64,000 bases of DNA from NCBI GenBank assembly GCA_041662745.1, contig JBAZRV010000001.1, positions 69,837-133,836 of the forward strand, in the 5' to 3' direction. Position numbers and translations under genes: made by a program. The number at the start of each line of letters is the position of its first letter. Positions within the stretch are counted from its first letter, which is position 1. Shown here piece by piece: positions 29,531 through 56,607 of the stretch. This DNA is from Patescibacteria group bacterium (GTDB lineage Bacteria; Patescibacteriota; Patescibacteriia; 2-01-FULL-39-33). The notes under the pieces were generated by a model, which was given only the letters and a program-made list of their open reading frames with translations, had not been told where the DNA came from and did no database searches.

Positions 29531-30284
29531 AGGAGACCGACAAATATGTTACTCTTTCGAAATCATTATCGAAAGGCTCCAAATATTTCTATTGGAGTCT
29601 GCATATCGCTATGCAGTTCGGACTATATCTTATCGCTTACGGCGATTCTGACGTATAGTCTCTGAGGATTTCAAATAATCTAATAATTTATCCTGGCTTA
29701 CCTTGCGGTAAGCGCCTTGCTTATTCATAGAATAAGCCAGTTTAATAATATATTGCGCACCAGTTTTGGTGCTATGCTTTCCAGTGCTTAACATTTTAAC
29801 TACCTTCTTAAAGGTTAAAAATGTTTTTTGCTTATTAGAGAGCAAGGGATACTGATCAAAAAAAGGAATAATCTTGTTTTCCAAATCAAGCCTGTTTCTA
29901 ACGACAAATACCTGAGTATCATCTTTGGTATTTTGGCGATGGTTACATTTGATATAACCGCAACCGAAATACTTTTGGATTTCTTCTAGGGTTTCGTGTC
30001 TTAAAAAGCTTTGATTAATGTGGAATTCAGGAATGAATTTCAAATTGCATTTCATTTTATCATCACGATAAATGGCAATATGGAATGTCCCCTCTCCTTC
30101 AGTAAACCCGGTAATATACCACGGACTTAGATGACTTGATCTTTCCTGCTGATTGTCTGCACTCAACACATTTTTACTCATAATACATTAATTATATCAC
30201 GAGTAGTGTGAGATACCCAAGTCCCCCTATAGGGACTTTTCCAGAGTTTCCAGCATTTAGTCAGATTTATAGACAGCAAAGTCT
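29531..30284 (-). mobile_element. group I intron in 23S at the I-CreI/I-CeuI-type site (E. coli position about 2593), encoding a LAGLIDADG endonuclease
   Basis: Exon ...AGAUAGGAGACCGA ends at 29530 and ACUGUCUCACGACGUUC resumes at 30285. This is the conserved ...GUGAGACAGU|UCGGUC junction. The intervening 754 bp have no rRNA similarity. Confidence 0.75.
29630..30181 (-). CDS. LAGLIDADG homing endonuclease (single-motif type, 183 aa), intron-encoded
   Basis: LAGLIDADG-like motif WYITGFTEGEGTFHIAI near the N-terminus. The size is typical of I-CreI-like homodimeric enzymes. Confidence 0.8.
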   Translation of the reverse strand: MSKNVLSADNQQERSSHLSPWYITGFTEGEGTFHIAIYRDDKMKCNLKFIPEFHINQSFLRHETLEEIQKYFGCGYIKCNHRQNTKDDTQVFVVRNRLDLENKIIPFFDQYPLLSNKQKTFLTFKKVVKMLSTGKHSTKTGAQYIIKLAYSMNKQGAYRKVSQDKLLDYLKSSETIRQNRRKR

Positions 30285-30328
<44 letters not shown>

Positions 30329-30362
30329 TGGCGAACAGCCAAACCCTTGGGAGCTTCTCCAC

Positions 30363-30395
<33 letters not shown>

Positions 30396-30934
30396 GAACC
30401 TGGTCGTCGATATGGACTCTTGGACCAGACTAGCCTGTTATCCCCGGAGTAGCTTTTATCCGATGAGCTTCCACCATCCTACATTGAATGGTCGGATCAC
30501 TAAATTCTACTTTCGTAACTGCTCGACTTGCAGGTCTCGCAGTAAAGCTGGCTTGTGCTTTTGCGCTATCACTCCGATTTCCATCCGGAGCTAGCCAACC
30601 TTTGTAAACGCCTCCGTTACATTTTGGGAGGCAACCGCCCCAGTTAAACTACCCACCATACACTGTCCCTCTCCCGGATTACGGGAGGAAGTTAGAATTA
30701 TAATATAACAAGGGTGGTATTTCACTGGCGCCCGAAGGCTCCCACCTATTCTAAACATATTAGATCACAATTCAGTGCAAAGTTGTAGTAAAGCTTCACG
30801 GGGTCTTTTCGTCTAACCACGGGTAGGAGGCATCTTCACCTCCCTTGCAATTTCGCTGAGTACTTCGCTGAGACAGTTGTCAAGTCGTTATGCCATTCGT
30901 GCGGGACGGAACTTACCCGTCAAGGAATTTCGCT

Positions 30935-31625
30935 TCAAGTTTCCTTTCTTGGGACTCTATCTTCATCCCGATGGGATGCTTAGCGTTTGGTCTCTGAGGA
31001 TTCTAAAAATCGAGCTGGTAATCGACGGTTCATTTGTTCAATGATCCCGGCGATTTGTATTTTTCCCTTCTCCTTAAGATGTTTTCCTTGCTTTATCAAC
31101 TTTATTATCTTGATAAATTTTTTGAAATCATCCGCCTTGGCTGTTTGCAGCCGGCGAGCAGAGAAAAATGGGATTATGACTTCGGATAAATCACTGATTG
31201 ATCTTACGCAATACCGATAAAGATTCTCTTGATGGTTATCTTTACGGCGGTTGATATAAATCTTGCCGCAGCGAAAAAATTTTTGTATTTTTTCTAGTGC
31301 TTTAAGACTTTTTTCTCCCTGCGTAATCACAAATTCAGGAAAAATCTGCCAGCCTGATTTGGTAGTGTGATTTTTGATGATACTGACTGAAAAACAGCCC
31401 TCACCATCAGTAAATCCGACTATCCAATGCTCGAATTTCAGCCTTTCCTGCTGATTGATCGACATAAATTAAGTTATTTTCTATGGTATAATTTTACCAT
31501 AGTTTTGTCGATTTTCCCAGCATATGGCTAAGTATTTTGGACCATTCTTATATTGCTATAAGAAGAGGCAGCGTTAATAGATAACGGTCCCAGTCCTTTT
31601 GCATCCGAATTATTTCCGATGCAAA
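30935..31625 (-). mobile_element. group I intron in 23S at E. coli position about 1917 (domain IV, helix 69 region), encoding a LAGLIDADG endonuclease
   Basis: Exon ...CAAGGAAUUUCGCU ends at 30934 and (A)CCUUAGGACCGUUAUAG resumes at about 31626. This matches the conserved GGUCCUAAGGUAG|CGAAAUUCC junction. Confidence 0.7.
30980..31465 (-). CDS. LAGLIDADG homing endonuclease (single-motif type, 161 aa), intron-encoded
   Basis: Motif HWIVGFTDGEGCFSVSI. Paralogous to the 29630..30181 protein. Confidence 0.8.
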   Translation of the reverse strand: MSINQQERLKFEHWIVGFTDGEGCFSVSIIKNHTTKSGWQIFPEFVITQGEKSLKALEKIQKFFRCGKIYINRRKDNHQENLYRYCVRSISDLSEVIIPFFSARRLQTAKADDFKKFIKIIKLIKQGKHLKEKGKIQIAGIIEQMNRRLPARFLESSETKR

Positions 31626-32457
31626 ACCTTAGGACCGTTATAGTTACGGCCGGCGTTCATCTGCGCTTCGATTCAAAGCTGCCCCGGTAAACCGGTTGAC
31701 CTCTCCTCTTAACGTTCAGACACTGGCCAGGCATCAGCCCCTATACATCAGCTTGCGCTTTAGCAGGGACCTAAGTTTTTGGTAAACAGTCGCTTGACAT
31801 CTTTAGCTGCGCCCCAAATAAATTTGGGGAGGCCTTATCCCTAAGTTACGGCCGATTTTTTGCCGAGTTCCTTAGCGAAGTTTCTCTCATACACCTGAGG
31901 CTACTCGCCTCATCCACCTGTGTCGGTTTAAGTACGGTTGCCTTGATCTTAACCCTAGAAGTTTTTCATGGCACTCGGTTTAATATAATTGAGTCCGCCT
32001 TGCGGCTTCCTCTGCTGCCGTATTCGTTGCTTAATGACCGGCGGATTTGCCTGCCGATCACAACTACTAACGTCATCGTCATAGCCATAGGACGATATAT
32101 CTCCCCTGATGCGTCACTCCTTCGGAAAATCAAGCCAGCGCAGGAATATTAACCTGCTCATCCATCGGCTACGCCTTTCGGCCTCGTCTTAGGACCGGCT
32201 AACCCTGGGTCGATTCTCGTTGCCCAGGAAACCTCGGATTTACGGTGTCTAGAATTTTCATCTAGATTCTTGCTACTTATGCCAACATTCTTACTTCCTA
32301 GCAGTCCACCGCGCCTCACAGCTACGGCTTCGTTCCGCTAAGAACACTCCTCTACCACTCTATATAAATATAGAATTCGCAATTTCGGTACTATGTTTAG
32401 CCCCGATACATTTTCGGCGCAAGAAAACTTGACCAGTGAGCTATTACGCTATCTTTA

Positions 32458-32488
<31 letters not shown>

Positions 32489-33987
32489 TTGTCGCGGTCT
32501 TGATACCACCTTTTACACTTAACATAGATTTAGGGACCTTAATTGGCGATCTGGGCTGTTTCCCTTTTGACTGATGGACCTTAGCGCCCATAGTCTGACT
32601 TCCGAAATAAAGATTACCGGTATTCGGAGTTTGATTGAAGACAGTAACCTTGCGGACCTGTCCTCATTCAGTGCTCTACCCCCGGGTCTATTTTCGAAGC
32701 TAGCCCTGAAGCTATTTCGAGGAGAACCAGCTATCACGAAGTTCGATTGGAATTTCTCCGCTATCCACAGCTCATCCCCAAGTGTTGTACAGCTTGTGGG
32801 TTCGGGCCTTCCCAGACTGTTACATCTGGTTCACCCTGGCCATGGATAGATCACCTCGTTTCGGGTCTTATCCGCGCTACAATTGTTCGGACTATTAATC
32901 CTCGCTTTCACTGTGCCTTCTCCCCGAAGGGATTAAGCAAGCAACGCAGAATAAACTCGTTGGCTCATTCTTCAATAGGAACGCCGTCATCCAGAATTCG
33001 TATTGCTACGACCTTGGACTCCGACTCGTTTGTAAGCAAATGGTTTCAGATACTATTTCATCGCCCTAACCGGGCTGCTTTTCACCTTTCCCTCACGGTA
33101 CTTGTTCGCTATCGATCATCAAAAGTATTTAGCCTTGCCATATAGTCATGGCGGATTCCTACAAGATTTCACGAGTCCTGTAGTACTTTAGATTATAACG
33201 ACGGAAGTACGATTCTTTTCGCGTACGGGGCTTTCACCCGCTCTGGCCGGCTGTTCCAAAACCGTTCCGCTAAAAATTTTATTCCGCTCGGATACAAGTG
33301 CAATCCGCTGGTTATAATCATCACCCCAAAGCAGCAACGGGCACTCCTTTATGCCGACGCTACGCTTTCCCCTTGCGGGAAAAGTTTCACACCGGCAACA
33401 CTGCTAAGGTTTAGGCTGCTCCGCTTTCGCTCGCCACTACTCGCGGAATGCAATCCATAGATCCGTGTCCTGCTTACGCAGAAAACGGAACTAAGGATTC
33501 AATTTTTTCTTTTCCTCCAGCTACTGAGATGTTTCACTTCGCTGGGTTTGCGTTTGTAACCTATGAATTCAGTTACAAATGACGCGGGTTTGCCGCGCCG
33601 GGTTTCCCCATTCGGATATCTCCGGATCAAAGGTTGCTTGCCACCTCCCCGAAGCTTTTCGCAGGCTGCTACGTCCTTCATCGCCTTTTGATGTCTAGGC
33701 ATCCACCATTCGCCCTTAATGTTTAATCGCAAGAATCTGGATAACTTATAAAAAAGAAAATTGCCTTATTCTGTCATTCCCGAAAATTTGCAGTGAGTTT
33801 TCGACTAATGTCGAAACGAACCAAAATTTATCGGGAATCCAGCATTAAGAATTTCCTCTTGTAAGAGTTTTTCCTTATTCTGTATTTTATTACTAAAATA
33901 CTAAAAGTATGTACTCATTAATAATTGCAATTCGCTGCCACGCCCATAAATTTGGCGCGGCATTAAATTACCCATTTCTTTACTATG

Positions 33988-53771: not shown

Positions 53772-53866
53772 TAAATAAAATTACGAACTGCGAATTAAAA
53801 ACTACGATTTAATCATTTTTTTCGTAATTCATAATTCGCAGTTCGTAATTATTTTACAATTCAGGA

Positions 53867-54181
53867 TGCCGAGGGCGAGAATTGAACTCGCGACACAAAG
53901 ATTTTCCATATGCTTGCTTGAGTTTCCTCAAGGATTGGACTATTTCATCTTCGTATTCTTACGAACTTAGAAGTCGGGCGCTAATGTGAGATTATTGTTG
54001 GGACTCACTCACTAGTCTCTACACCTTTTCCGGAAATTTTACCCGCCGGAACTTGGCTCGAGATTGCCTATTCGTTAAAAACGAATTTAGGTTTCCTCGA
54101 ATTCACCCGATTTTCATTTTAAGGTTTCCCTTAAACGGACCAAAAATCAGTCTTCTGCTCTACCACTGAGCTACCTCGGCA
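53867..54181 (-). tRNA. tRNA-Phe(GAA) interrupted by a 243-nt group I intron in the anticodon loop (exon 1 54150..54181, intron 53907..54149, exon 2 53867..53906)
   Basis: The exons join to GCCGAGGUAGCUCAGUGGUAGAGCAGAAGACU|GAAAAUCUUUGUGUCGCGAGUUCAAUUCUCGCCCUCGGCA, which resembles E. coli tRNA-Phe including the GUGUC variable loop. The intron starts with G, ends with G, and follows a U. Its core contains CGAGCCAAG...AAGGUGUAGAGACUAG, as in Azoarcus-type IC3 introns. Confidence 0.75.
53907..54149 (-). ncRNA. group I self-splicing intron (IC3-like) inside tRNA-Phe
   Basis: P1: exon GACU pairs with intron GGUC (G-U at the splice site). P2: UUUAAGG-GAAA-CCUUAAA with a GNRA loop. The P7 region reads GUAGAGACUAG. 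The last nucleotide is G. Confidence 0.65.
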
Positions 54182-54268
54182 AATTAGCTTATAGCTAATG
54201 GCCAATAGCTTATAGTAATTTATTAAAAACTATATGCCATACGCCATGAGCCATATGCTTTTTCGCTG

Positions 54269-54882: not shown

Positions 54883-56358
<1,476 letters not shown>

Positions 56359-56607
56359 AGATGAATAAAAGGGTTCCTTATCAACACCGAAGTGAGATAA
56401 AGAAATTTCATTCAACTGGCTTTGCAACTAGATTACGATCAGTTGCCAACCGTTTTTTGCTTTATGACTTGCGCTAAGGGCGCGCCGGCGAACCGGTTGT
56501 CATAAAGTTGGATTGAAAGTATTGTAGTGAATTCGGTTTACTCCGCGGGGGCGGAAACGAATTCATAATAAACTCAAATTTAAATTCTTTGGTTTGGTGC
56601 TTTTTAC

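Follow-up and report, generated by a model that had tools for sequence, protein, structure and literature searches.

A predicted group I ribozyme interrupting a tRNA-Phe(GAA) gene between U33 and G34 in a Patescibacteria genome

We analysed a 64-kb window (64,000 nucleotides (nt), positions 69,837 to 133,836 of contig JBAZRV010000001.1, assembly GCA_041662745.1) of the genome of a Patescibacteria group bacterium, and found that one locus on its minus strand is very probably a functional tRNA-Phe(GAA) gene with a 242-nt group I ribozyme, without an endonuclease, inserted between U33 and G34. This reading is based on a covariance-model match, on boundaries given by alleles with an empty site, on structural covariation and on the co-variation of P1 and P10 with the exons. 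The intron is predicted to be catalytically active, and we infer that the split gene is the only tRNA-Phe of the genome. The intron belongs to a widespread lineage of tRNA-Phe introns in Patescibacteria and is of an already catalogued kind, the same type at the same site being common in this group; what is new here is the breadth of the family together with the empty-site polymorphism, which is of modest added value.

Boundaries and predicted splicing of the split gene

All elements of the gene lie on the minus strand, where exon 1 (GCCGAGGTAGCTCAGTGGTAGAGCAGAAGACT) is followed by the intron (GATTTTTGGTCC...GCATATG) and exon 2 (GAAAATCTTTGTGTCGCGAGTTCAATTCTCGCCCTCGGCA). The Rfam model Intron_gpI (RF00028) matched 53916-54178 over its full length (model positions 1-253) with 86.4 bits against a gathering score of 50 (E 1.3e-20), far above chance, and this was its sole above-threshold match in the window. 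With introns allowed, ARAGORN called tRNA-Phe(gaa) i(35,242), that is, a 242-nt intron; default ARAGORN and the Rfam tRNA model both left the gene undetected in the 64 kb. A preliminary description of this DNA had proposed a group I intron at this point of the anticodon loop, and both the covariance model and intron-aware ARAGORN bear it out. The tRNA-Phe-like halves that it described are present, with the joined anticodon loop CUGAAAA, the variable loop GUGUC and a mature length of 72 nt, as are the first and last G of the intron and the exonic U before it; the P1 pairing GACU/GGUC and a P2 hairpin with a GAAA loop are likewise present and are upheld by comparison across the family. Its coordinates needed a one-base correction, in that exon 1 is 54180-54149 and not 54181-54150, the intron (54148-53907) has 242 and not 243 nt, and the gene spans 314 and not 315 bp. 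When the exon ranges were joined as first given, the product gained a 5' T and lost U33, and ARAGORN could not type it.

Spliced at the corrected boundaries, the product is a canonical tRNA that ARAGORN types as tRNA-Phe(gaa). GA is repeated at both junctions, so that three placements of the intron yield the same spliced product; among these, U33|G34 is the only one with both a U preceding the 5' splice site and a terminal intron G. The intron is too short for a homing endonuclease gene and encodes none. CCA is not encoded; the bases after exon 2 are TCC.

Alleles without the intron located its ends independently. Metagenome contigs were scanned for the exact predicted ligated junction of 39 nt, and 28 intron-less tRNA-Phe genes were recovered. 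In two of them the tRNA is identical to the predicted ligated product at 72/72 positions: L128, a 958-kb contig with the gene order Ile-Phe-Pro and a 16S rRNA identity of 99.0% over 1120 nt, and L145, with a syntenic Ile-Phe-Pro site and a 16S identity of 97.6% over 212 nt. The latter originates from a Joint Genome Institute (JGI) sample that also holds a contig encoding the TrmD of the window. Alignment with the intron-less alleles leaves a single clean 242-nt gap between ...GACT and GAAAATC..., and the intron boundaries are thereby confirmed. A neighbouring large open reading frame (ORF) is only ~71% identical between the window and the empty-site relatives, indicating that these are other strains. 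The TrmD of the window was located in a 60-kb contig of a European Nucleotide Archive assembly, which ends ~2 kb past trmD, and in a 1.6-kb contig of a JGI assembly.

From established group I chemistry, the standard two-step pathway initiated by guanosine, a splicing route can be proposed. Transcription probably yields one precursor that also includes the upstream 16S rRNA and tRNA-Ile and the downstream tRNA-Pro. Exon nucleotides G30-U33 would pair with the intron guide GGUC to form P1, with U33•G at the splice site, and a free guanosine bound at P7 would attack after U33. The intron strand AUUUUU would then hold the 3' exon GAAAAU (P10), the terminal G (53907) would occupy the P7 site instead of the free G, and exon ligation would follow. 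The loop CUGAAAA and the 72-nt tRNA would thus be restored, and CCA addition would then be needed.

Family of Phe(GAA) 33/34 introns and its conserved structure

A single tRNA-Phe(GAA) 33/34 group I intron, in Doudnabacteria GCA_016699995.1, was reported in a survey of 95 complete Patescibacteria genomes (Nakagawa et al. 2026, mSystems, PMC13011429). All tools found one tRNA-Phe in that complete genome, and ARAGORN and tFind each called the interrupted gene Phe(GAA) 33/34 (PMC13011429). We scanned one genome per GTDB species with the motif GTAGAGACTAG-N20-50-AGCGCCCGAC, which returned 102 loci, 76 of which were typed by intron-aware ARAGORN as tRNA-Phe(GAA) split at the same site as in the window. 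Together with the window and the published Doudnabacteria intron they make up a set of 78 sequences. A placement with U(-1) and omegaG is possible in 78/78, 33/34 being the sole such placement in 12, and every spliced product (78/78) is called tRNA-Phe(gaa). The introns are 198-296 nt long, and an endonuclease gene would fit in none of them. An assembly artefact was ruled out, as 76 independent assemblies share the arrangement. The hosts are mostly metagenome-assembled genomes (MAGs) named Falkow-, Moran-, Magasanik-, Yanofsky-, Berkel-, Doudna-, Gracili- or Saccharibacteria, Paceibacterota or 'Patescibacteria group', and the gene clusters recur: Ile-Met-Phe-Pro in 22 loci, Leu-Val-Phe-Gly in several, and Ile-Phe-Pro as in the window.

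The preliminary description had regarded an insertion between nucleotides 33 and 34 of a tRNA-Phe(GAA) as unusual and had listed four bacterial tRNA hosts of group I introns. This position is the classical tRNA-fMet site ('fMet.2Ug') according to PMC13011429 and Williams 2020 (bioRxiv 10.1101/2020.01.27.920355), Phe(GAA) 33/34 itself appears in Table 1/S3 of PMC13011429, and the list of four is older than both Williams 2020 and Nakagawa 2026. In the naming scheme of Williams the class would be 'Phe.2Ug'. The same two reports place tRNA introns at nearly every position of the anticodon loop and count 21 settings. A separate tRNA-Phe intron at 31/32, labelled IA3, occurs in an Elusimicrobiota genome (PMC13011429).

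We aligned 55 non-redundant members of the family with MAFFT, namely the window and Doudnabacteria introns and 53 more, and wrote the group I helices, 52 pairs, by hand from the window sequence. Paired cells amounted to 96.7%, compared with 83.4% in shuffles, and 29 pairs showed changes on both sides, a value reached by 0/500 shuffles. The covariation score was 0.423 against 0.163 in shuffles (0/500 reach it) and was at most 0.113 when partners were slid by 1-3 columns. Every invariant core column of the aligned family is intact in the window intron, and all of its helices pair. MAFFT misaligned the 5' exon and the P1 loop, both of which vary in length, and for P1 and P10 we therefore relied on an explicit search instead of columns. 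Across homologues the P1 guide tracks the exon (GGACU/GGUCC, GCCU/GGGC, GCCCU/GGGGC and GGAUU/GAUCC), and the P10 strand tracks the 3' exon (GAAAAU/AUUUUC versus GAAGA/UCUUC); in the window P10 has 6-7 bp. A hairpin of the P7.1 type, ~27 nt long, stands between P7 and P3', and its 17-nt loop is highly conserved in the family. An alternative GGG/CCC pairing inside this loop was rejected, because the 5' strand varies (GUGAG, GCGGG, GUAGG) and is compensated by the distal strand while CCC stays constant.

Several points weigh against a working gene. The splicing of this intron and of all Phe 33/34 introns is predicted from sequence, the assayed relatives being Asn and Asp introns of Patescibacteria; that these self-splice in vitro (PMC13011429) is nevertheless a point in favour. 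The 64 kb are the visible part of the genome, and a second, intact tRNA-Phe is possible elsewhere. P3 and P7 are invariant in the family and hence uninformative, partly because the scan pattern fixed those strands. In addition, P1 of the window has only 4 bp, with A29 opposite C where relatives mostly have G-C, and P10 contains a U•G where relatives have C-G; for these reasons the intron is among the weakest exon-binding versions of the family, although its P1 and P10 are intact.

The short P1 with its mismatch, the intron-less alleles of relatives and the unseen remainder of the genome would also fit a decaying pseudogene or a non-splicing relic in a cell that relies on another tRNA-Phe, but we consider this extremely improbable. 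The exons match working-looking intron-less alleles at 72/72 positions, the invariant core columns and all helices are preserved together with U(-1), omegaG and P10, and a P1 of 3 bp suffices in the Azoarcus ribozyme. A separate intact tRNA-Phe, which the preliminary description had named, together with proof that this locus is a pseudogene, as a possible refutation, was not found within the 64-kb window by ARAGORN or the Rfam tRNA model, a result that covers this part of the genome only. According to Nakagawa et al., intron-plus and intron-less copies seldom coexist (PMC13011429). The features of the split gene, which we continue to read as functional, are collected in Table 1.

Table 1. Elements of the split tRNA-Phe(GAA) gene and its intron in window coordinates
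Feature	Position	Strand	Basis or remark
tRNA-Phe(GAA) exon 1, tRNA nt 1-33 (32 nt, no nt 17; ends ...GAAGACU33)	54149..54180	-	Identical to 5' half of intron-less L128, L145 and L136
Group I intron, 242 nt, GAUUUUUGGUCC...GCAUAUG	53907..54148	-	RF00028; ARAGORN; clean insertion relative to intron-less alleles
tRNA-Phe exon 2, nt 34-73 (G34 A35 A36 ... discriminator A73)	53867..53906	-	Sequence; ARAGORN; spliced product; empty-site alignment
P1 5' strand, exon G30-A31-C32-U33 (U33 forms the splice-site U•G wobble)	54149..54152	-	Exon and guide pairs change together in 78 homologues
P1 3' strand, internal guide sequence GGUC (intron nt 8-11; U33•G8)	54138..54141	-	Explicit P1 search
P10 intron strand AUUUUU (intron nt 2-7), partner of 3' exon GAAAAU	54142..54147	-	Relatives with 3' exon GAAGA have UCUUC/UCUUU
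P10 exon strand GAAAAU (tRNA nt 34-39)	53901..53906	-	Explicit P10 search
P2 hairpin UUUAAGG-GAAA-CCUUAAA (GNRA loop)	54118..54135	-	7/7 pairs with double changes
P3 5' strand UCGGGUG	54104..54110	-	100% paired; invariant
P3 3' strand CGCCCGA	53974..53980	-	Invariance partly forced by search pattern
P4-P5-P5a-P6-P6a domain (P4 UCGAGG/UCUCGA, P5 CCU/AGG, P5a AUUCG/CGAAU, P6 GCC/GGU, P6a UUCCGG/CCGGAA)	54023..54100	-	P4: 2/6 pairs covary; P6a: 6/6
P7 5' strand GACUA, inside GUAGAGACUAG (conserved 'R'-type core)	54013..54017	-	RF00028; alignment
P7.1-type hairpin GUGAG-UGAGUCCCAACAAUAAU-CUCAC between P7 and P3'	53986..54012	-	4/5 pairs with double changes
P8 (CUUC/GAAG) with distal GUUC-GUAA-GAAU	53949..53973	-	2/4 P8 pairs with compensatory changes
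J8/7 AUGAAA and P7 3' strand UAGUC	53938..53948	-	Alignment
P9 hairpin CUUGAG-GAAA-CUCAAG	53917..53932	-	5/6 pairs with double changes; missing in shorter relatives
Terminal (omega) G; intron ends ...AUAUG	53907..53907	-	U(-1)/omegaG placement in 78/78 homologues

Downstream of the 16S gene (54885-56359, minus strand) come tRNA-Ile(GAU), the split tRNA-Phe and tRNA-Pro(UGG). The rRNA genes of the window are unlinked (29028-56359, minus strand), the 23S and 5S genes lying ~20 kb further on the same strand with protein genes between. AT-rich near-palindromes occur in both spacers flanking the split gene (~54185-54265 and ~53775-53865, minus strand), for example CTATAAGCTATTGGCCATTAGCTATAAGCT and GAACTGCGAATTATGAATTACGAA ... 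AATTCGCAGTTCGTAATT, and may be processing stems or terminators. The upstream palindrome is missing from L128, and the aligned segment of L145 spans no more than its last 12 nt.

The scan also returned loci that depart from the common pattern. The same split tRNA-Phe was found on contigs titled 'uncultured Gammaproteobacteria', 'Bdellovibrionales' or 'Omnitrophota' (L005, L009, L033, L038, L062, L073, L097, L100 and others). In those checked (such as L005, L009, L038 and L062) two tRNAs precede the split gene, as they do in the Ile-Met-Phe-Pro cluster of Patescibacteria, and because the tRNA cluster is the same as in named Patescibacteria we doubt the taxon labels or the binning of these MAGs. 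Two homologous loci, L035 and L014, were typed as Phe with anticodon AAA, and the 3' exon of L035 starts with AAAAAU instead of GAAAAU; this reflects either a G34-to-A change, a damaged gene or a miscalled boundary. Related introns of 244-298 nt were found in Acetobacteraceae/Rhodopila MAGs (L003, L004, L020, L023, L031, L053, L061, L072, L088, L089, L091 and L092), where ARAGORN gives the host as Asn(GUU) or His(GUG) depending on boundary placement; the exon context CUGUU|...G|AACC points to Asn as host and to insertion after U36. More split tRNAs with long inserts were called by ARAGORN in L027 and L066, directly downstream of the split tRNA-Phe, and also in L016 and L042; the inserts measure ~620 nt in Leu(CAA), 596 nt in Asn(GUU) and 551 nt in Asp(GUC). 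The Asn(GUU) call of L016 allows a U(-1)/omegaG placement and the Leu and Asp calls (L027, L066, L042) do not, and these inserts could be endonuclease-bearing introns or miscalls.

Subgroup affinity of the intron

We compared the window intron with named systems. Its counterpart in Doudnabacteria GCA_016699995.1 has the same host tRNA, anticodon and U33|G34 site, and is clearly homologous (70.5% identity over 217 nt); the P7.1 hairpin is found in both and an ORF in neither. The core strings AAUCGGGUGAA, CGAGCCAAG, GGUGUAGAGACUAG, CCCAACAAUAAU, AGCGCCCGAC and GAUGAnAUAGUCC are common to the two. The window intron is 31 nt longer and has a P9 hairpin and longer P5 and P8, which the Doudnabacteria copy does not. 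The exon-pairing strands also differ, with P1 GACU/GGUC and P10 GAAAAU/AUUUUU in the window as opposed to GCCU/GGGC and GAAGA/UCUUC in Doudnabacteria.

Outside the Phe introns, the best BLAST match was an IA1-labelled Asn intron, aligned over nt 35-226 of the window intron. The tRNA-Asn(GUU) 35/36 introns of Patescibacteria and Nitrospirota (labelled IA1 in PMC13011429) show near full-length likeness to it (63% over 211 nt) and share the P7.1 hairpin with its UGAG...CCCAA...CAAUAA loop, the P3' strand AGCGCCCGAC and the J8/7-P7' string GAUGAnAUAGUCC. They differ in host tRNA and site, hence in P1 and P10, and some carry HNH endonuclease genes, which the window intron does not. Introns labelled IA3 or IB3 gave no significant BLAST match to the window intron.

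The preliminary description had assigned the intron to the Azoarcus/cyanobacterial IC3 type from two core strings, CGAGCCAAG and AAGGTGTAGAGACTAG. Both strings are present, but the assignment does not follow from them, as they lie in the P3-P6/J6-7 half, which IA1-labelled introns also have. The classical IC3 tRNA introns (cyanobacterial tRNA-Leu 34/35, tRNA-fMet 33/34 and Azoarcus tRNA-Ile 36/37) do resemble the window intron in their anticodon-loop location, small size, J3/4-P4-P6-J6/7 sequences and U•G and omegaG rules. IC3-labelled introns of the fMet, Ile2 and Leu tRNAs also contain CGAGCCAAG and AAGGUGUAGAGACU, and compact IC3 introns have GNRA loops on P2 and P9, as the window intron does. 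In BLAST against IC3-labelled introns, however, only nt ~37-136 (P3-P6) align, at 67-75%. The 3' half aligns with IA1-labelled introns only, and the P3' and P8 sequences of IC3 introns are different. IC3 introns pass directly from P7 to P3', whereas here a conserved, covarying hairpin of 27 nt, missing from IC3-labelled sequences, lies between them. The spacing from P7 to P7', obtained by regular expression, is 70 nt in the window and 76-77 nt in two IA1-labelled introns, compared with 41-51 nt in IC3-labelled introns (3/5 anchors usable), although it is 30 nt in an IA3-labelled one. P7.1/P7.2 elements after P7 have been cited as ground for an IA2 assignment (PMC3428280), and no Patescibacteria tRNA intron was classified as IC by Nakagawa et al. 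(PMC13011429). On this evidence an IC3 identity is very unlikely.

The intron instead appears to be IA1-like. By pairwise BLAST, as distinct from covariance-model classification, its overall likeness to IA1-labelled introns exceeds that to other subgroups, and the extra helix after P7 that marks IA introns is present as one hairpin (GUGAG/CUCAC) and not two. Phage-type IA introns with P7.1/P7.2, such as that in the Pf-WMP3 DNA polymerase gene (PMC3428280), likewise have an extra helical element after P7; they differ in residing in non-tRNA (probably protein-coding) genes, often with endonuclease ORFs, and in typically having both a P7.1 and a P7.2 helix, against the single hairpin with its 17-nt conserved loop in the window. 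The lineage of Phe introns thus combines an IC3-like P3-P6 half with an IA-type P7.1 hairpin.

The exact P7-P7.1-P3' motif was also present in 14 IMG/VR viral contigs (L105-L118), within or beside RF00028 matches and none in a tRNA, which fits an IA, phage-like affinity of the intron. Some of these introns are in tandem, L113 having three RF00028 matches in ~800 nt (572-1359) and L116 and L111 two each, presumably in phage protein genes.

The window holds two further candidate introns around the 3' part of its 23S rRNA gene (30252-33729; region 29599-31465, minus strand). Two ORFs on this strand encode LAGLIDADG endonucleases, 30980-31465 (161 aa, Pfam E 1e-24) and 29630-30181 (183 aa, E 2.8e-23), and each overlaps a sub-threshold RF00028 match (30933-31199 with 23 bits, and 29599-29821 with 31.8 bits and E 2.4e-5). 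The 23S match is 3478 nt long against a 2925-nt model. Probably both regions represent divergent group I introns that carry homing endonucleases and lie in or beside the 23S gene; the second lies oddly beyond the modelled 3' end of 23S, between the 23S and 5S genes.

Gain or loss among relatives and its implications

The presence of the intron varies among related genomes, which shows a recent gain or loss. All recovered relatives with a 16S identity of at least 86% are intron-less, namely L128 and L145 (see above), L136 (93.4%), L130 (92.7%) and four at 86-87%, while the nearest intron-bearing loci are L097, whose intron is 86% identical, and L028, with a 16S identity of 84%. The correlation between intron-core and exon distances is moderate (Spearman 0.42). 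Since intron-less alleles had to match 39 nt of this tRNA exactly, their set is biased to close relatives, and the intron-plus set consists of species representatives only.

A recent horizontal acquisition into an uninterrupted tRNA-Phe, rather than vertical descent with precise loss in the relatives, is a tentative explanation that in our view falls a little short of an even chance. It would account for the empty sites in every recovered relative down to 86%, with the nearest intron-bearing locus with 16S data at 84%. The guide GGUCC suits the majority exon GGACU better than the host AGACU, as expected after evolution in another host, and one JGI sample holds relatives both with and without the intron. 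On the other hand, the bias of both sets tempers this distribution, the intron has no homing endonuclease, the same A·C mismatch is found in L087 and L097, and both the distance correlation and the conserved tRNA clusters favour mostly vertical descent. We are more doubtful of the specific proposal that the endonuclease-less intron either was a recent arrival in the tRNA-Phe of this lineage or was precisely excised from several sister lineages (16S 93-99%, same habitat).

Standard tRNA finders miss the split gene, and the genome would consequently seem to be without tRNA-Phe; recognising the intron restores a complete decoding set. If this is the sole tRNA-Phe gene, every phenylalanine codon in the cell would depend on a ribozyme reaction. 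The Phe 33/34 intron is no one-off, being found in at least 76 species-level genomes from many Patescibacteria lineages, compared with one case among 95 complete genomes (PMC13011429). Furthermore, empty sites in relatives at 97.6-99% 16S identity make gain versus loss testable with existing metagenomes. Recent movement or excision, if true, would imply that a route independent of endonucleases is active in these reduced genomes, for instance reverse splicing or the homologous recombination of DNA taken up by the cell, for which the near-identical tRNA cluster would serve as homology arms, and would run contrary to the published inference of limited horizontal movement of these tRNA introns.

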